Shown one piece after another: positions 27,699-61,008 of a stretch of DNA of 64,000 nucleotides (position 1 is the first letter of the stretch; the number at the start of each line of letters is the position of its first letter). The position numbers and the translations under genes were made by a program. The DNA comes from Octopus vulgaris. Lineage: Eukaryota. The DNA lies in NCBI GenBank assembly GCA_951406725.2, contig OX597815.1, positions 89,714,001 through 89,778,000 of the forward strand. Direction: 5' to 3'. The notes under the pieces are model-generated. The model saw nothing but the letters and a program-made list of their open reading frames with translations, had not been told where the DNA came from and did not search any database.

Positions 27699-27912
27699 AA
27701 GGCAGTGAACTGGCAGAAACGTTAGCACGCCAGGCGAAATGCTTAGTGGTATTTCGTCTGTCGTTACGTTCTGAGTTCAAATTCCGACGAAGTCGACTTT
27801 GCCTTTCATCCTTTCGGGGTCGATAAATTAAGTACCAGTTGCATACTGGGGTCGATCTAATCAACTAGGCCTCTACCCCAAAATTTCGAGCCTTGTGCCT
27901 AGAGTTGAAAAA
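27699..27912 (+). mobile_element. Full-length tRNA-derived SINE (family B) with 16-bp TSD
   Basis: A-box-like TGGCAGAAACGTTAG, B-box GAGTTCAAATTCC, central GTCGACTTTGCCTTTCATCCTTTCGGGGTCGATAAATTAAGTACCAG and an A tail. Flanked by AATATTTTACGA(C/T)GCC at 27683-27698 and 27913-27928. Confidence 0.9.
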
Positions 27913-48206: not shown

Positions 48207-49720
48207 AACAAGAAATTTAAAAAGGAAATTACACACACTTTACATAGTTTCGCTTTAGCTATTCATGATATTAAGGTTTATAAATTTGAATACGTACTTT
48301 TTTATGAAGAAATTTTTGTCCATGTTGTGTGTAATGATACTTACGAGTGAATGACTTCACAATTAGAAAAATAAGTGGAGGTAATTGGTTATCGTTATTA
48401 TTATTGTTGCTGTTGTTGTTGTTGTTGTTTAGACATCATGATAAAAGTCAACAATTATATCATAACTGACATCTGTTATAAACCAACTGACTCAAAACAA
48501 AATCTCTTTAGCCCTTGCTACCCGAAACACATCAAGATAAATATCCGTTTCAATTTAGCAAAAAGGATTTGCTCAATAGTGTCTATTAGAACAACGCGGG
48601 ACCTTCGTTTTCAAGACTTCAAAACAACGCTTACTGAAAGACAATATCCACCCTCACTTATAAACGAGGTAATTAAACGTGCCCCAAAATTAGACGTAAA
48701 AACACTAAGAACAACAAAACATAACACCACACCTCATGTCAAAACTACTATTTATATCAACACACAGCCCCAGAAACAGTGAGGCATTTAGCAATATGGT
48801 GCATAATCTTCCTTTACTAACTACAGATCCTAAAATGAGCGACATCCTGAAAACACGCAAGCCCAACAAATGCAAAAAGCAACACAAATCGCTAAAGAGA
48901 CTACTAACAAATGCGAAGCTTTACAAAACAATCACGAAACCAACGGTTAAAAATGTGGACAGCCAAGCTGTGGAACCTGCCTCAACTTACTTGAAGGCTC
49001 GGTTTACCTTTTCAAACAAGGACAGAGGTTCACAATTAAAACTAGTTTCACTTATGCCTCTGAGAACCTAATTTATGAAATAACCTGCTCGGGTTGCGGT
49101 CAAAACTATAATGAGAGACGAGTATGAACCTGAGAAAGAGAACTACTCTACATAAAGATCAAATCCGTTTCCCGCATACAATCAAATTCTTTCAGGGAAC
49201 ATATAGAAAAATGTGCAGATAGCATCAAACCTAATTGCACAGTCTTCCCCTTCTACCAGTGCAAATACACTATCTCTCCACAAGAACGTTTATATAAAGA
49301 AACTTTTTTCGTTGAAAAATACAGAACACGTCTTAATATGCACGTACAACCAACTTTTATCTTTTTACATATTTCAGTTCACGATTACATCACTATACAT
49401 AAATCCCCTCACTAAACACGTTTTTCGAAACCTTTTTTTTTTGTGTGTGTGTATACACATATATACCCTCACCTTACCGAAACCGAACAGTTATCTACCT
49501 TTATTTTTCTACTTACCCTTATTTTTTTACTTGTGAAGTCATTCACTCGTAAATGTTAAAACACACAACATGGATAAAAATTTCTTAAGAAAATACATAT
49601 TCAAATAGGTAAACCATAATATCATGAATAGTGAAAGTGAAACCGGTCCATATATTACAAAGTTTATTAAAAATGTAAAGTTTGTGTATTTTCCTTTTTT
49701 TAATTTCTTATATATATTAC
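48200..49720 (+). mobile_element. 5'-truncated PLE (RT thumb, linker, GIY-YIG; frameshifted) with inverted terminal repeat
   Basis: LDIMIKVNNYIITDICYKPTDSKQ..PCYPKHIKINIRFNLAKRICSIVS...YPPSLI, then CGQPSCGTC..FTYASENLIYEITCSGCGQNY. 48200-48390 is the near reverse complement of 49490-49715 (TTACGAGTGAATGACTTCACAA / TTGTGAAGTCATTCACTCGTAA). Confidence 0.88.
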
Positions 49721-50403: not shown

Positions 50404-52095
50404 ATTGTGGCTGCTCCCTCGTTATCGAGTATGGCCATTGCACGAAGCTTAACTGTTACTGGTGCTGTGATCGAATGTGACTTTTTAGCCCAGCTAAAGA
50501 TCTACAATGTCTTGTACAGAATTGGCAACTAAAAATTTACCGGTAATAGCCGGCTGTATTTGTAACTGGGCTTCATGTACCTTTGCATGTCGTTTAAGTC
50601 CTCTCCTCATGCTGAATTACACTCTCTTCCACATGCCCGGCAGATATGATTTGTATGATGTGTTACACCAAACCAGTGACCAGGTTGTCACTCATCTGTC
50701 TCGCTTTATGACTACGAAGATGACTGTTGAGTCCAGCTTTACTGAGGCATGGTCTTGCACAGACATTGCATGTCAGCATCAGAGGAAGACCCTTCCCATC
50801 TGGAAGTGTAACAGCGATGCCCTTCCTGACATCCCTCCTTACTTTCTCATGTGCAACTCAAGATTTCTCAAAAGTGGCTGTCTTCTCGTGCACAATCCTT
50901 CTCCATCTGCTACGATCAATAGCTATGTCTTCCCATGTGTCAGGAGAGATGCAAGCATCTCTTAAGGAAGCCTTCTGCGAGTCCTTATACCTCCTTTTTG
51001 GTTTATGTGGAGGTCGTTCTCCTTTAGCTACCTCTCCATAAAAAAGTTGTTTTGGCATCCTTGAATCCTTCATCCTGACCAGATGACCATTCCATCTGAG
51101 CCTTTGCTTTAACACAAGAGCTTCTATACTTTCACACCGAGAGCCTTCCAATATTTCAAGATGCAGTCTTTCCGCTTAATGCCATAGATCCGTCTGAGGC
51201 ACATCTGATGGAAACGTTCCAGTTGTTTAAGGTGGTATCGATATGTGACCCATGTTTCGCAGGCATAGAGAAAAGAAGGGGGCACACATGGCTTGTACAC
51301 CGTTATCTTTGTTTTTCTGCATATGTCTCGCCGACTCCAGAGGCGCTTTTCTAGCCTTCCGAAAGCAACACTTGCTTTCCTAATTCTATATGGAATTTCA
51401 TCATCCAAATTGCTATATCTATTAATAGTGCTTCTGAAGTAGACAAACTGATCAACTAAATCACGTCGTTTACCGTACACATAGATATTTGGTACACTAT
51501 ACTGCTTACCAGGGGCAGGTTGATGCATGTCAACAGTTTTCTTGAGATTGACTGTCAATCCTAAGGCAGTGCAAGCATCAGATAATGTATTCAAAATGTG
51601 TTGCATATCAATCTCTGTGTGTGCTACTAGCTCACAATCATCTGCATACAAAAGGTATCTTATGATAGAGGTAAATACCTTTGTTTTGCAGCAAGGCGCC
51701 CGATATTAAATATGCTGCCAGAGGTTCGTTAATGGACGTAAACACTGTATCTGCAGTTTCTGAATGCAATACAGAACACCATCGCAAAATATATGGAAAA
51801 TAGGGTCGGTGCCAGAATATCCCCCTGTTTCACTCTATTTTGTATTGAAATGGGCTCCGACATTTTTCCTCTAACATTAACCCTACCATTCATGTCTTTA
51901 TGAAAAGACCTAACCAAAGTTATGAACTTTTCAGGGCACCCAAGTTTCTGGAGGACTTTCCACAATGCTTTTCTATTGACAGTATCAAAGGCTTTTGTCA
52001 GATCGACAAAAACCTGATACAAATCCATAATTTGTTCCACACACTTCTCCTGAAGCTGTCTAGCTGAAAAGATCATATCAGCAGTACCACGTCCC
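50404..52095 (-). mobile_element. RTE-clade LINE, 5'-truncated ORF2 (RT) pseudogene with intact 3' end
   Basis: GRGTADMIFSARQLQEKC..FVDLTKAFDTVNR..VKQGDILAPTLFS, YADDCELVAH..GLTVNLKKT, LRWNGHLVRMKDSRMPKQLFYGE, and a terminal CRSLAGLKSHIRSQH zinc finger followed by a short 3' UTR. Confidence 0.92.
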
Positions 52096-52139
52096 ACATA
52101 AATACATACATACATACATACATAATACAAACATACGTA

Positions 52140-52940
52140 GAGGGTCCGAAGGGTAAATTGTTGCCATTTTATAATTACAATTTTGCGCATCCGCAGTTGG
52201 GCACCATCTGTGAGAAAAGCAGCACCATAATGCAATTCACTCTACCAGAAATTTGGAAACGACATGATGTACTGTTCGGCATTTGTGCCCGAATCTCCAA
52301 TACGAATAATTCAGCGTGTTTCCGTTTCAATCTGAGAACAGTGCAATCTGAGGATATGTACCGAGAGTGATAAAAATCAATCATCCAGTCAACATCATGT
52401 TGTTTGGAGTTATCACTTATGATGGTGACGTTATGCCTCCAGCCATCTTCTCACATGGCCTCAGAGTCAACACGGAGGCCTGCATCAAAGTGCATAATGT
52501 AGATAGTGCTGCCCTGGGTCAAGACGGTGGCTACTGGAATACCCGATATCTCGCAACAAAACTTTGCCCCATGCCACACAAGAAAGAGAACCCGGTCGTG
52601 ACTGTCAGACAATTTCTGGGGCTACATCAACCCAACCATCTGGCCACCTAACGCCTCAGACTACAACCCCTCAATTATTATGTGTGGGTTGAGGTGAAAG
52701 ATAGATTAACCAAACTCCTTGCAACACCAAAGATGAACTGAAGGCAACTTAAACAAGGAGACCGTCCGGAAGAGTTGCAGGAGAATCCGAAGTCGTCTAG
52801 AAGCCGTGGTTGAATAAATTTACTCTTTAGTATTACGAGATATTTTTATATCATTTTGTTAAATGTAGTATTTAAAATGCGATGTCAGTGTTATCTTCAT
52901 TTTTGCGTAATTTATACGACCGTTTATTCACTGCACCCTT
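52140..52940 (+). mobile_element. Internally deleted Tc1/mariner-superfamily (maT-like) DNA transposon
   Basis: HPVNIMLFGVITYDGDVMPP..FSHGLRVNTEA, APCHT and IWPPNASDYNPLNYYVW (~WPPxSPDxNPLDY). Imperfect TIRs AGGGT...TAAA and TTTA...ACCCT with TA flanks. Confidence 0.78.
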
Positions 52941-55900
52941 TATATGTATGTATGTATACCAAACCAAATCCAACAAGTACTATATTTAAGAAATCTGACT
53001 CACCTGTTATTGTAGTGGAAAATGACTGTAAATTACATGAAAAACTAGCAGATATACGCAAGGAATTATCATATGGAATATGAAGTATTACAAGAAAGCT
53101 ATCTACCTGTATATTGTCACTTTAATTCTTTGCCATTTCGTATTTATTAATATTTTCCTAAAAGAGTCAATATTTTGTAATGTTTCATATCAATATAAAT
53201 ATTATACGGAGAATGAAAAGTGTTTGGCTAAACTTCTTTCGTCCTGGAAGCAATTCATAGAATATTATGCCGAATGGTTACGGGGAAATTTTTAAATATG
53301 ATGCCAATCCACTTGTAATAAATATTGCTGGCGTACATCTGATATTGAATATTATACAGGAAACCTCAAAAATATAATCAAAAAGGCAAACGAAAGTATA
53401 TTTCTTTACCTGGCTATAAAAAAAAGAAACAGAGAAGTGGATATCAACTTACTGAAAATATTCCAACCAGAAAAAAAGATATAAAGAAACATAATGCAAT
53501 GCAGGTTTACAAGTTAAAATATCAGATTTGATAGATACACCTACGTATTAGTATACCGCTTCACAACTAAACAAAAATTGTATTTTTTCTCTTTCTTAGA
53601 GCTTTTGTCAATAACCAGCCGGATGTACTTTTGAAATTTTAAGTGTATAGAGCAAATAAAAAAGAAGTCTGAAAATTGAATTATATTATATATAATATAC
53701 GATGTACTTTATAGTTATGAATTTGAGTATTAGAAACGATATTTTTTTAATGATTGCAAAACGTAGATTTGAATTTCAAATGGGAGTAGAATATAAATAA
53801 GCACCATGAAAATCGAGACGTAATCTAACATCTGTATATGAAACCTTTCCGCACTTGGTATATAATGAATGATTACTCACGTTATTACACCTTACAAATT
53901 TTATTACGCCTACGCGTTAAAAGAAAACCGTGAAAAACAATTTAAATGAATTCTTTCCATATTTTTATTGGTTATGTTTTTTTATTGCTGTTGTTTGTTA
54001 TTTGGGTACCTGGAGCTGCAAGGAAAATTATACGGAAATGCTCTCTATATAATAATTTTAGTGTGAAACCATTTATTTCTGGATCACTTTACATTGAACT
54101 AGAAATTTTCTTACTATCTTTAAAATATCTAGAGATGATTAAGTGACAAAATATGGAGCAGAAGATAAATATTCCAGCAATAAAAACGTTAATATTCTCA
54201 TTGTGTTATAACGAGCGATGTTTTACTATATTTTCATTGTTATAACGCAAATGGTAATTTCATAAAGCTCTAAAAGAGATAAAGGGTAGGAGAATCTTTC
54301 AAAATATAAGGCTATAATTTTCCATTAAAGTCGTTCTTTGATTTTGTTTCAATATATATTTAGCACAAAACCGAACACACTATATTGAGATTTCTCACAA
54401 TTTATGCATATTTGAATAGTTACGATACATAGTTAATTTAACAGAATCTTAATATTGTAAGTTATATATCTTTATAATTCTCCTATTCAACATTATTTAT
54501 AAGTCACTTTTTATCGGCCAGCTTTATTGTTTGCAATAACGATCATGATGCGTGCTAATATGTTAGAAAATACGGTTAATATGAAGCTTTCAACTCTATG
54601 AAGACAAATATGTTAGTACGTTTCGCTTGTTGTGTGAAGTTCTGTGTGTGGTTTACTCATTTAGCTACATGTAAATTTGTATTCAGGCTTTTATTCTCAT
54701 ATCTATTCCACTTTGAATATAAATATTCCCTGTACTTGAACGTTATTAAATTCATAAATTATAATGTCAGCATGGCCTGTATCGAAGTAATTCGTTTCTT
54801 TATTCATATCCGAGGTTTATCCATGCAGATTCTGAGTTCAATATGATCTCATAGCTTTCTGTAAAAATATTAATTATTTGAAAAATCCTTGATTAAATTA
54901 AATGGTGCATGAGAATGTATTAATGCAAACGTATCTTTCACAATGTATACGTCCAATTCATAAACGGTTGAGTTTCACATTCACCGGGTTATAAATTATT
55001 TCAGTACAACGGTAGGCATTGTGTACATGTAAGACATCAAACCAAAAGATTAAATAAAGTTGGAAAGGAATCTTGAGATTATATTCATCAAAACTTGTGC
55101 GTATATTCTATATGTTATATAAGATGTTATATCACATATGTCTGTGTGTGTCTTTGTGTGCATTGTGTGTGTGTCTGTGTGTGTTAAATAATATTATCAA
55201 GATACCATCACAGATGGCCAGTCGATGGCCGTCGATAATGTTCCTATTCTAGACGAAAAGTCCTGAGTCATAGTTTCACTCAAGAATTAAGTGATACTAT
55301 GATCACTTTCTCATTTACGGATTCTGTGTAGAGGTATCGACCGTCGATCTCCACACATTCAGTTTTGGCTTACTATAGATTTCATTCACAACTAAATAAA
55401 GTGAGAATAAGTTTTGTCTTGGCAAAATAGATTCCTTTATTCTCCGAACACACCCAAACTAGTGACTGTTCTTCCATGCACCAGCCTTTTCCATGCTATG
55501 GAGTTTGGATATCTTCTGCATAGAAGTGTTACTGACCATTCGTTACTGAATATATTTATACGTATACATACTCACACATATACATATACAAAGAGAGAGA
55601 ATATATATATATATTACTCTTTTACTCTTTTACTTGTTTCAGTCATGTAACTGCGGCCATGCTGGAGCACTGCCCTTAGTCGAGCAAATCGGCCCCAGGA
55701 CTTATTCTTTGTAAGCCTAGTACTTTTTCTATCGGTCTCTTTTGTAGAACCGCTAAGTTACGGAGACGTAAACACACCAGAATCAGTTGTCAAGCGATGT
55801 TGGGGGGGGGGGGGGGCAAACACAGACACACAAACACACACACACATGAACATATATATATATACATATATGCGACGGGCTTCTTTCAGTTTCCGTCTAC

Positions 55901-56011
55901 CAAATATACTCACAAGGCTTTGGTCGGCCCGAGGCTATAGTAGAAGACATGTGCCCAAGGTGCCACGCAGTGGGACTGAACCTGGAACCATGTGGCTGGT
56001 AAGCAAGCTAC

Positions 56012-58069
56012 TTTATTTCATAAAATTTGTCATCATAGACAGTACAAAGAGTGTGTAGCTTTGCGGGCTGGACAAACACATTAATGAATGAAAATGAAAT
56101 AGAATGAATAAATGAGAGACCCGCCGATTGGATATTTCTCGAAAACATATTTTCTTTTTTTAAAAAATCAATATGAGGTTTCAAACCTCTTACAAGAAGG
56201 AGGCACTAAAACCTCTTACTTAACATGTTTTTTTTTAAACACACAATTGAGGTTATAAACCACTACAAATAATACAATAAGATGAGGTTTCAAACCCTAT
56301 AACGAGGGTCTTTCACCTCCTACTCTTCGATATATCCATCAATATATTCATCATTATCTTCAATTCCGCTTGAGTTCCCGTATTCAGCCATTTCCCATGC
56401 CTCACTCATGTAGGACATGTAAGTCGTGTAAGGGCCACCCTGCCATATGCGACACTCCTCCCCAAATCCTTTAAGTATTTCCCACAAGGGAAACCTTATG
56501 ACCTCCAAAGCTATCTGCGGAGGCCATTCGGGATCCCGTGTGAAGGGCATATCTACTGTCTCTTTATGTTCTTCTACTATTTTTTCCACCTCCCCGCCCT
56601 TATAGAAAAATATAATTAATTGATCATCTTTAAGGGTGGGGGTGGTTTCTTCCACCGTGGGTAGCACAACTTCGGGACATACAGACGTCACATCATCTCC
56701 CCGCTGATATGAGCCGTTCTTCCTTCTTTTTTTTCTTTTCTTCCTGACTTCGGGAGTGTGGAGCTCTTCCGCTTTGTCCGGAGACTCTCCCCCGCCTTCC
56801 GAAGCCTTGGGTTCCTTCGGCGGGCAACTAGTGTTGCTTGCCTTCTTCCTTTTTAATCCTTTTTGAGTTGAGGAGGCTGAAGCCCCCTCGACCACATCCA
56901 CCTCTCCCTTTGACCGGGTAGGGGAGGTGGCATCTAGTGACTGTTCCAGGACCTTACCATGGTCCTGGGGGCAGTTTCTTTTAATGTGGCCTGGCTGCAG
57001 GCACGAGTGACACTTGGGGGGACGTCCCTCAAGTATCACCGGATACCTGCAGCCATCCATTTTCAAGAAATCTGGAGAAACCAGATCTGTTGCGGCTGAT
57101 GGGGTCCACATGGTCAAAATTGCTTTTGACCCTTCCCAATCGACCGCCGGCAATACCCTTACATTTAAGAGCCTGGGCCCGCCATCCCCCAGTCCCCGTC
57201 GGATGGTATATTCAATCCAATCCGCTTCGGTGTCTGGGGGCAACCCACATACCCAGGCTCTTATTAATTTCCTCCTGCAATATGAACAGAATTTCCTTGC
57301 CTTCTAAAGGCTGACTCGCAAACTGGCGAGCCTTTTCCCCGTTGTCAAACAGCAACCATACGGTTGCATGTTTGACACCACGGGATATATATTTTAAAGA
57401 GGACAAATAGTCTTTAAGTTCATTTCTTATAACTTGTTTTGGGTAGACGGAGATGGAATTAAGAACTTTAGAATAAGTTCTAAGCACCACCGTCTTCTCC
57501 TCCATATCTTTTAACCACTGCTTAGGCGGGTTAATTTCCCACTCTAAGGCAGAGTTTTTCTTTTTAAGTTCCTTCTCTGCCATGTCAAAAAACAGTTCAA
57601 AAGTAATTCAAAAGACAGTCTGCCAAAAAATTAAGTCGAATAAAAATAAAACAAAATAAAAGAGGAGGGAAGGAAACTGAAATTAAAGTAATGAAAAGAA
57701 TGAACCAAAATTTAGAAAGAAAGAAAAAATAGAAGTGAAAAGTAAAAGAAAAACCTCACAAATAGCACAGACAGGGAATCCTTTGTATAATACTCCAAAA
57801 AGGTAATCCAAATGGCTTATTCTTGAAGTTCGGAAAATTTGTACTTTTTCTGGCGTGATACGCCCACTAGTATTTACAAAAATAATTTTCAAGACAAAAT
57901 TCTCAATTCACCCTTACGGTGATAAGATCCCAGTATTTTGCTAGCTATAGCGAGCCATAATTAACAATTTTCTTTTTGTTATTTTTTCTATTCACGTAGC
58001 CCAAAAAATCTCACATCTTGTCACTGTAACATTCCAGACCAACTAGTGTTGCATTCTGAGTAACCGGAA
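56012..58069 (-). mobile_element. Non-autonomous ORF1-only retroelement (half-LINE/HAL1-like) with 13-bp TSD
   Basis: TSD GTAAGCAAGCTAC at 55999-56011 and 58070-58082. On the minus strand: ~490-nt 5' UTR starting TTCCGGTT, a single ORF1-like gene, and a ~300-nt 3' UTR ending in AATAAA. No endonuclease or RT. Confidence 0.8.
56320..57583 (-). pseudogene. L1/Tx1-type ORF1/gag-like protein (RRM-like region plus CCHC zinc knuckle), ~420 aa, one frameshift near 57283
   Basis: ORF 57583-57212 (VVLRTYS..VWLLFDNGEKARQFASQPL) joins ORF 57243-56320 (RAWVCGLPPD..YPVILEGRPPKCHSCLQPGHIKRNCP, a CX2CX4HX4C knuckle). Basic tail KKRKKRRK and acidic C-terminus. Confidence 0.8.
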
Positions 58070-58110
58070 GTAAGCAAGCTACCTACCACACAGCCACCAC
58101 TGCGCCTATA

Positions 58111-58199
58111 AGATGAAAAGCAAAGTCGACCTTGGCGGAATTTGAACTCAGAACATAGGAGCAGATGAAATATTGCTTTCTAACGATTCTGCCAGTTCG
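58111..58199 (-). mobile_element. SINE family B 5' fragment
   Basis: GATGAAAAGCAAAGTCGACCTTGGCGGAATTTGAACTCAGAAC...TTCTGCCAGTTC is the reverse complement of the 27699 SINE head. Confidence 0.75.
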
Positions 58200-58309
58200 A
58201 TACATAATTATGTACATAATTATAAAATATTTATAAAATTTATCTACGAGGTTTTATTTTCGTACTGACCACTTGGTAAAAATCATTTAGGATTTGGCCC
58301 TTTATTATG

Positions 58310-59361: not shown

Positions 59362-59712
59362 TATTAGTGCGCAGGAGGGGTCTGGACGTGTGTATGTATA
59401 GGGTTGGTGTATGTATTAGTATGTATTAGTATGTATAAGGGCGTGTGTGTGTGTGTGTGTGTGTATGAGAGAGTATTAGTGCGTAGGATAGGTCTGGACG
59501 TGCGTATGTATGGGGTTGGTGTATGTATTAGTATGTATTAGTATGTATTAGTACGTATTAGTATGTATAAGTGTGTGTGTGTGTGTATGAGAGAATATAA
59601 GTGCGTATGAGGGGTCTGGACGTGTGTATGTATAGGGTTGGTGTATGTATTAGTATGTATTAGTATGTATTAGTACGTATTAGTATGTATTAGTTGGTGT
59701 ATGTATTAGTAT
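59362..59712. repeat. Three ~110-125 bp tandem units with nested 10-bp TAGTATGTAT repeats in the PLE 3' region
   Basis: GGTCTGGACGTGYGTATGTATRGGGTTGGTGTATGTATTAGT occurs three times. Confidence 0.85.
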
Positions 59713-60754
59713 GGCACATCATATATGATGTGATGTGTAAAGTCGTGTGGTGTAGTGAGGAGAAGAGGGGGGAGAAGGGGAGGGGTAGGAGAGGGGGAAG
59801 AGGAAAGGAGGGGGGATAGAGGAGGGGAGAAGGAAGGGGAGGGGAGGGGGAAGAAGGGGGAAAGAGGGAGAGGGAGAGAGAGAAGGGGAGTGAGGGAGCA
59901 GAGGGAAGGGGAAGAGGGAAGGAGGGAGGGAGGGAGAAAGAGGGAAGAAGGGAAGGGGAGTAGGGGTGAAAGGATGAAGGACTGAAGAAGTAGGGGTCGG
60001 GGGGAAGGATAGGTGAGGAGGGGGAGAGGGGGTTAGATGAGGAGGGGGGAGAGTTGAGACCAAATGGCGTATAAGAGCGAAGAGAGAAGATTAATTCCTG
60101 TTCACGGCGCAAACGGGAATCCGGATGGCCTCTGTGTAAGAACAAACCGAACACAGATAGGTGTTGCAAGGAGTGACCGGTGGAGCGGAAATGGCGTGAG
60201 ACCGGTGTGTCGTTCGCAAGGTGGATGTCATGAAGGTGTTCCGCGAACCGGTCAGCCAAGCGGCGTCCCGTTTGTCCGATGTACAAGGAATTGCAGAGAG
60301 AGCAAGAGACGCAATAGATAATATTACTGGAGGTGCAGGTGAAGGAGTGGATGATGGGATAGGGTCGATGGTGGGTGCTAGTGAGGCGGGTGGTGTTGGA
60401 GAGGTAAGGGCAAGTGCGGCAACGTGGGCGGGAGCAGGGGAACGAGCCGGGTTGGGAGGTAGGGTCAGGGAAGGAGCTATGGACCAAAAGGTCTCGAAGG
60501 TTGTGGGCTCGTTTGAAAGAGGGGAGGGGTCGGTTAGGGAAGAGGTGTGAAGTGGACGGGTCGGACTGGAGATGACGGAAAGCTCGAAGAATGGTGCGTT
60601 GGAGACGTAGGGTCGTGGGGTGGTAAGTGAGGAGAAAAGGGAGGCGGGAGACTACAGGGCGGGTTCGGGGAGAGAGAGCAGATACACGGTCCACGGATCG
60701 TGCTCTGGCAAGGGCGGTGTGGATAGTGGATATATGTATATATATCGAACTCAC
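59690..60754 (-). CDS. PLE linker plus GIY-YIG endonuclease (real coding part ~60050-60730, 5'-truncated; Pro/Ser tail is low-complexity read-through)
   Basis: RLPFLLTYHP..FPNRPLPSFKRAHNLRDLLV..PCSRPRCRTC..FTCTSSNIIYCVSCSLCNSLYIGQTGRRLADRFAEH..VSRHF..RLRREQELIFSLRSYTPFGLN. Confidence 0.85.
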   Translation of the reverse strand: MSSIYIHISTIHTALARARSVDRVSALSPRTRPVVSRLPFLLTYHPTTLRLQRTILRAFRHLQSDPSTSHLFPNRPLPSFKRAHNLRDLLVHSSFPDPTSQPGSFPCSRPRCRTCPYLSNTTRLTSTHHRPYPIIHSFTCTSSNIIYCVSCSLCNSLYIGQTGRRLADRFAEHLHDIHLANDTPVSRHFRSTGHSLQHLSVFGLFLHRGHPDSRLRREQELIFSLRSYTPFGLNSPPSSSNPLSPSSPILPPDPYFFSPSSFHPYSPSLLPSFSLPPSFPLPLPSAPSLPFSLSLSLFPPSSPSPPLPSPLLYPPSFPLPPLLPLPFSPLFSSLHHTTLHITSYMMCHTNTYTN

Positions 60755-61008
60755 TACTTCATCATTGTGAACTCGACTCTCTAATTACTGGGTCATGCGC
60801 CTTTACAACCTGTATGTATGTATATATATATATATATATTTATATGAGGTATATTTGGCATCACAATATGTCTAACCATTAAGGGTGGGTGTTACTGTAC
60901 CTTGTAGCACCAGGAGAACATCTCCTCCAGCTGGCTATAGGCACACTTTCTGTGCACTATCGGTATTTGCAAAGGAAGGTCATCCTTCCCTCGTCAACCT
61001 AAGTGATA

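Follow-up and report, generated by a model that had tools for sequence, protein, structure and literature searches.

Structure of the insertion and its host SINE

The window, that is, the whole 64,000-nucleotide stretch of Octopus vulgaris DNA analysed here (contig OX597815.1), carries on its reverse strand an ORF1-only insert lodged in a SINE. The locus is composed of the following features (window coordinates):

56012..58069, minus strand: ORF1-only non-LTR retroelement, apparently 5'-complete copy, 2,058 bp
57584..58069, minus strand: 5' UTR, 486 nt, with a presumed internal promoter
57284..57583, minus strand: N-terminal 100 codons of ORF1, probable first RRM-like domain (low model confidence)
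57283, minus strand: frameshift site; three contigs of run X4 have 8 more bases here and the homologue P0003 reads through
57019..57279, minus strand: second domain, RRM fold, from the model of residues 101-186 of the homologue P0003
56965..57015, minus strand: single CCHC zinc knuckle (Pfam)
56719..56745, minus strand: basic tract, putatively NLS-like, closing a low-complexity linker
56404..56628, minus strand: C-terminal domain, containing a depth peak at 56504-56581 in all four runs
56012..56319, minus strand: 3' UTR, 308 nt, with its AATAAA end at 56012-56017
56155..56299, minus strand: 36-nt repeat in three copies, with a palindromic core and predicted to form stem-loops
55999..56011: target-site duplication (TSD) flanking the 3' end of the element, exact over 13 bp and possibly as long as 15 bp (to 56013)
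58070..58082: TSD at the element's 5' end, 13 bp exact
58070..58106, minus strand: host SINE, 5' piece, with an A-box-like motif at 58086-58096
55613..56011, minus strand: remainder of the host SINE, with a B-box-like motif at 55972-55982, a microsatellite middle and a short tandem-repeat tail

The original prediction placed a 2,058-bp insert between perfect 13-bp duplications that split a SINE, and both of its ends hold: in an exact-match scan the 13-mer occurs in the window only at 55999-56011 and 58070-58082, a 13-base match at two fixed ends having a chance probability of about 5e-8, and the SINE becomes continuous once the insert is excised, its alignment with the uninterrupted SINE at 1764-2236 running through the junction. 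Insert and SINE lie on the same (minus) strand, with the insertion point between the A-box-like and B-box-like motifs. Neither ARAGORN nor Rfam called a tRNA, the nine Rfam matches are all at chance level, and a second copy of the insert was not found within the 64-kb window. Pattern searches of metagenome contigs (81 matches in one search, 0 in another) and of prokaryote genome contigs (601 matches) yielded no confirmed relative, a result that carries no weight because these collections are not from octopus. In public contigs from all four runs described below, the majority of uninterrupted SINE copies read TT after the 13-mer; hence, the duplication may span 15 bp, a single letter at 58083 having changed since, and the final AA of the element's AATAAA may stem from the target. 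The L1 nick consensus is TTTT/AA (PMC1950540), with which the presumed nick site agrees only at TT/A.

A second very high-copy repeat adjoins the head of the host SINE at 58112-58200, with sharp ends in the runs at 58112 and 58153-58154 and another copy at 27750-27810 in the window. An ETS-like motif spans the 5' junction of the element (58064-58071); it may resemble a motif at the starts of fish L1 elements, a likeness for which our literature search found no support.

Coding capacity and domain architecture

The ORF opens with an ATG at 57583 and runs for 100 codons to the break at 57283, followed by 320 codons up to the stop codon at 56320-56322; restoring the frame yields an ORF of about 423 codons. 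These coordinates, together with Pfam, agree with the predicted layout of a 5' UTR, an ORF with a single frameshift and a 3' UTR ending at AATAAA, all without an endonuclease or a reverse transcriptase (RT): the only domain that Pfam finds in the insert is zf-CCHC (E 0.00076, just below the curated cut-off), and no RT- or endonuclease-like domain was detected by it. In the one copy whose end was read, AATAAA directly abuts the TSD without a poly(A) tract.

The ORF had also been predicted to be RRM-like with a CCHC knuckle. The knuckle is recovered by Pfam and the second RRM by structural modelling, but a first RRM can be kept only tentatively. We modelled residues 1-204 of the homologue P0003 from a 7-row alignment (pLDDT 58.7). 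Residues 101-186 of this model match RRM domains with a best Z of 7.8 (rmsd 2.5, 73 aligned), a middling score, with nearly all of the matches listed being RRM-type domains, which supports an RRM-like fold for the second domain at the level of the model. A Foldseek search returned no match at E 0.001 or better, and tandem-RRM proteins appeared only at E 0.02 or worse; therefore, the RRM-like reading of the first domain is tentative. The RRM fold of P0003 101-186 and the CCHC knuckle together identify a single ORF1-like protein. An RRM combined with a CCHC knuckle is the layout of type I LINE ORF1 proteins (PMC4120745, PMC5203782), and this is the layout of the element's ORF.

The 36-nt repeat pattern, itself taken from the element, matches three times in the window against 0.27 expected. 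The hairpins have a folding z-score of -4.2 in a region chosen after the repeat was seen, and the whole 3' UTR has one of -2.3, with 3 of 100 shuffles folding as well.

Copies in public sequencing runs

Contigs from four of 24 listed public runs (X1, X2, X4 and X15, the last possibly RNA, at a guess), bearing three organism labels, were aligned to 55880-58200, and a junction was counted as bridged if at least 31 letters matched on each side. Statements about individual pieces concern 32 listed of 543,599, and those about differing sites 40 listed rows of 312. The best run contains 0.49 of the words of the window, and thus the window copy is absent from the runs at near identity.

All 30 bins of the insert are nevertheless covered in all four runs, and by diverged sequences: the number of distinct contigs with a letter other than that of the window reaches 85, 72 and 97 at position 56508 in X1, X2 and X4, and is still 17, 13 and 20 at 58059, which lies ten bases short of the 5' end. 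Between the 3' UTR and the 5' end the summed depth falls 10.2-, 6.5- and 8.1-fold in X1, X2 and X4 (Spearman correlation of about -0.83 to -0.85 over 26 bins), and 3.4-fold in X15. This gradient fits 5' truncation, although summed depth is not copy number, and part of the drop near the 5' end could come from swapped 5' UTRs. X1 record 7 and X4 record 32, which bear different organism labels, both diverge from the element at 57722. There is also a roughly 5-fold drop of depth at 57830 in X1; together, these exits and this drop possibly mark a subfamily with an alternative 5' UTR.

At the other end of the ORF, four of the 32 listed pieces (X1 record 1, X2 records 17 and 18, and X4 record 25) bridge the stop codon and continue into the same 3' UTR; at the stop codon itself, no listed piece departs from the element. 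Each of the four has 17-32 differing letters, making it 8-12% diverged from the window copy, and they therefore come from other copies of the element. The possibility that all other copies continue into an ORF2, which the original prediction had named as a challenge to itself, is thus contradicted as far as these pieces extend. Two pieces depart from the element on its downstream side while still within the ORF: X4 record 26 at 56491 (with 98 unlike letters) and X2 record 23 at 56982 (with 113). They may belong to relatives that continue in another way. The contigs are short, averaging about 68 letters in X1, and as no single one covers the whole element, the window copy is the only one seen in full length and with its TSD. 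Nevertheless, the many diverged contigs in each bin, the joining of the stop codon to one and the same 3' UTR and the Octopus homologues described below uphold the prediction of a multi-copy ORF1-only retroelement. The lack of ORF2 is seen in the window copy and in the four bridging pieces, and spread by retrotransposition in the many copies and their 5' truncation, with the TSD contributed by the window copy.

The window copy itself has decayed. At least 21 sites of the ORF differ between it and the runs; among those listed, 18 change the residue and three are synonymous (3/21 versus 22% expected, p 0.60), falling on the three codon positions as 7/10/4, as would be seen under neutral decay of this copy. 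Three X4 contigs have 8 more bases at the frameshift, giving a whole number of codons; they account for 239 of the 1,864 depth units at the site in X4 and are absent among the rows listed of the other three runs.

Homologous proteins in Octopus

The RRM-knuckle core recurs in nine proteins, seven of which carry names, and all seven are from Octopus (four from O. sinensis and three from O. bimaculoides). P0003 is identical to the element at 60 of 96 positions in the N-terminal domain and 74 of 105 in the second domain, against 32 of 76 in the linker, a distribution expected of a protein under constraint. It reads through the frameshift of the window copy and ends immediately past the basic tract. 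At five of the seven listed differing sites that fall in the two N-terminal domains, the letter of the runs gives the P0003 residue. None of the nine homologues is fused to an endonuclease or RT domain; a search for such a partner among longer proteins, a weak one with 7,997 candidates scored, gave two matches, neither of them so fused. From 13 representative matches we retained P0003, P0006, P0012 and P0015, and set aside P0004, P0010 and P0014, whose matches were remote or driven by the knuckle. The 'uncharacterized' Octopus gene models P0003, P0006 and P0015-P0018 are probably pieces of retroelement ORF1s. A separate model, P0020 (O. sinensis LOC115225349), joins an unrelated-looking coiled-coil protein to the N-terminal part of the element's ORF1 family, and is either an exonisation or a misannotation.

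The C-terminal domain

The approximately 95 residues after the basic tract had been flagged as not recognizable, and they stayed so in every search that we conducted: scanned alone they have no Pfam match, the best E against PDB sequences is 1.2, the Atlas returned no match, and in the search of the C part against 1.84 billion representatives none of the 13 matches had its best stretch past residue 215. Single-sequence modelling of the domain reached a pLDDT of 44, and we discarded as unusable the fold matches of that model (Z up to 4.2, mostly ferredoxin-like alpha/beta). Two homologues, P0015 and P0019, have a tail of similar size following the basic tract. A resemblance seen by eye in the tails of P0015 and P0019 was set aside as not significant (p 0.11). 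The tail of the element has no significant match to the tails of four homologues (shuffle p 0.26-0.64).

In all four runs depth peaks at 56504-56581, at 2.5-5.6 times the level of the 3' UTR, and drops just 5' of 56582. More broadly, the raised depth at 56426-56581, the core of the C-terminal domain, shows that this segment is common to more relatives than the remainder of the element is. Either more distant ORF1-only subfamilies have retained the C-terminal domain and diverged in their UTRs, or the tail represents the terminal part of an ORF2.

Proposed origin and mobilization of the element

We interpret the insert as an inactive copy, apparently of full length, of an ORF1-only retroelement that is present in many copies in octopus and is likely mobilised in trans by an autonomous LINE, probably of the L1/Tx1 group, and we give this reading a probability of about three in four. 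The family would have arisen when a two-ORF LINE lost its ORF2. Transcription would start from the 5' UTR and the RNA would end at AATAAA; the RRM/CCHC protein may coat its own RNA in cis, and a master lineage would hence keep the ORF. The repeated hairpins of the 3' UTR would recruit the ORF2 protein of the partner, which in the present case may have nicked the SINE at TT/A, with the terminal As of the RNA pairing with the freed TT. Target-primed reverse transcription could then have yielded the 13-15-bp duplication, with most copies probably being 5'-truncated.

The placement of the autonomous partner in the L1/Tx1 group is a guess, favoured by the length of the TSD, the AATAAA end and the 80 L1-Tx1 families of O. 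vulgaris. The type I ORF1 (RRM and CCHC) of the element is a Tx1 feature, but a non-diagnostic one. Such ORF1s also occur in I, Jockey, R1, Tad1, L2 and CR1 elements (PMC4120745), and thus the ORF1 type alone cannot fix the clade.

An ORF1-only element derived from and mobilised by another clade (I, CR1, L2, Jockey or R1) would accordingly have an ORF1 of the same type, and the look-alikes in the Atlas are CCHC clusters of arthropods and molluscs (0.91-0.93). Against such a parent, L1/Tx1 is the better fit to a TSD of 13-15 bp, to a TT/A nick and to an end at AATAAA that lacks a tandem-repeat tail. The abundance of L1-Tx1 families in O. vulgaris, of which 13 are reported as recently active (PMC13282606), points the same way and makes another clade unlikely. 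The loss of ORF2 could also have produced a chimeric ORF, in which a deletion brought the basic tract of ORF1 into frame with the ~100 codons that close ORF2; on this view the tail would be what remains of ORF2, and its extra depth would come from 5'-truncated copies of autonomous LINEs. The depth peak with its step-down just 5' of 56582, the end of P0003 right after the basic tract and the want of significant matches to the tails of four homologues would all follow from such a fusion. However, none of the 13 matches of the C part is RT-bearing over the tail, Pfam finds nothing in the tail alone, and P0015 and P0019 also have tails of similar size in the same place; we therefore regard the chimera as quite unlikely.

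It is more improbable still that most of the repeat signal comes from an autonomous parent LINE, of which one or a few copies lost an internal part by accident and themselves spread little. The lack of an element-spanning contig and the small share of listed pieces bridging the stop codon would be expected of such accidents. In contrast, the four bridging pieces are spread over three runs and three organism labels at 8-12% from the window copy, and the depth of the ORF body, about half to three-fifths that of the 3' UTR (31,147 versus 63,039 in X1), is far above that of the 5' ORF of a 5-6-kb LINE after truncation. The single-copy processed pseudogene of a host ZCCHC3-like gene, an alternative that the original prediction had itself named, retains hardly any likelihood: Atlas clusters with ZCCHC3 RNA-binding domains do score 0.89-0.90, but Pfam's RBD_ZCCHC3 is found in none of the 10 aligned members at E up to 1, and tens of diverged variants per position (as tested in part, at the position with up to 85, 72 and 97 of them), a 5'-truncation gradient and the lack of a poly(A) tail speak against a pseudogene.

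Under the preferred reading of an ORF1-only element mobilised in trans, the position of the window copy invites the question of target choice. Many, though not all, Tx1 members prefer a target sequence. That this element targets SINE heads is nevertheless doubtful. Equally tentative is the proposal, made by analogy with the binding of TFIIIB by the ORF1 of TRE5-A, that a Tx1-derived ORF1-only element would insert specifically between the A and B boxes of the abundant octopus SINE, possibly steered by the C-terminal domain of its own ORF1. Only one SINE insertion, that of the window copy, has both flanks read. With SINEs accounting for 11.6% of the O. vulgaris genome, landing in one by chance is unremarkable, although landing in the head is rarer. 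In all four runs contigs reach 58090-58098, which is 21-29 letters beyond the 5' end and below the 31-letter bar, with two sequence types in X1; contigs being short everywhere, early stops are common. X15 record 16 was rejected as proof of targeting: it has 27 SINE-side letters, and at 57895 it carries a letter seen otherwise only in the window, so that it may be the orthologous insertion.

Relationship to known ORF1-only elements

ORF1-only non-autonomous LINEs have been reported in mammals, flies and mosquitoes, where they belong to the L1, Jockey and CR1 clades, and in Dictyostelium. The original prediction was aware of none described in molluscs, and we likewise found none in a search of published papers that covered, among others, PMC9115989, PMC12988792, PMC11203168, PMC4758252 and PMC13282606; an entry for the element may well exist in Repbase, Dfam or the deposited octopus repeat libraries under an L1-Tx1 label.

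A poly(A) tail is a feature of HAL1 and L1, whereas in the one octopus copy read AATAAA abuts the TSD. Like the octopus element, the mammalian HAL1 is non-autonomous and encodes ORF1p only, having had multiple origins (PMC5753468). However, its ORF1 is the type II of mammalian L1 (Transposase_22), while that of the octopus element is of type I with an extra tail, and Transposase_22 is found in none of the 10 members at E up to 1. The element is thus not a HAL1 in the strict sense. Among the Drosophila telomeric families, approximately 40% are ORF1-only; HeT-A and other such elements resemble ours in being ORF1-only with CCHC knuckles, and HeT-A depends on a foreign ORF2 (PMC13534243). In contrast to the interspersed octopus element with its TSD and one knuckle, HeT-A belongs to the Jockey clade and has three knuckles, long UTRs and chromosome-end arrays.

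TRE5-A.2 of Dictyostelium (AB-ORF1-BC) is likewise ORF1-only, is mobilised in trans with a structured 3' module being required, is associated with Pol III (B-box) targets, and is suggested to gain in its rate of trans-mobilisation from ORF1 binding its own RNA (PMC3159450). It inserts ~50 bp upstream of tRNA genes through an ORF1-TFIIIB contact, whereas the octopus copy lies inside a SINE, between the A and B boxes. Ag-Sponge of Anopheles is similarly a bipartite non-autonomous LINE with ORF1 present, but is CR1-derived (PMC5786205). The target-specific Tx1 elements Tx1L, Keno, Kibi, Koshi and Tx1-Mar differ in being autonomous and RT-defined, and their reported targets are DNA and LTR transposons, snRNA, 5S, satellites and microsatellites rather than SINE heads.

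A mollusc family would bring the ORF1-only strategy to cephalopods, and to another clade if the parent is a Tx1 element. In addition, several Octopus gene models annotated as 'uncharacterized' are accounted for as retroelement ORF1s. Were SINE-head targeting true, it would add a target class, with a LINE parasite using another parasite as a safe harbour, and would offer a natural way to find out whether the site is picked by ORF1 or by the borrowed endonuclease; without it, the element extends the repeat catalogue of a genome in which repeats make up about two-thirds.

Other retroelement remnants are visible in the window. A decayed LINE has left two RT fragments (Pfam RVT_1) at 51124-52241 on the minus strand, which have no similarity to the insert (best E 0.5). 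An open frame of 364 codons at 59690-60784 on the minus strand has a weak GIY-YIG match (E 0.0097) and is probably a Penelope-like fragment. The stretches at 317-769 and 48375-48782, in which Pfam gives no GIY-YIG match, resemble this frame by eye.
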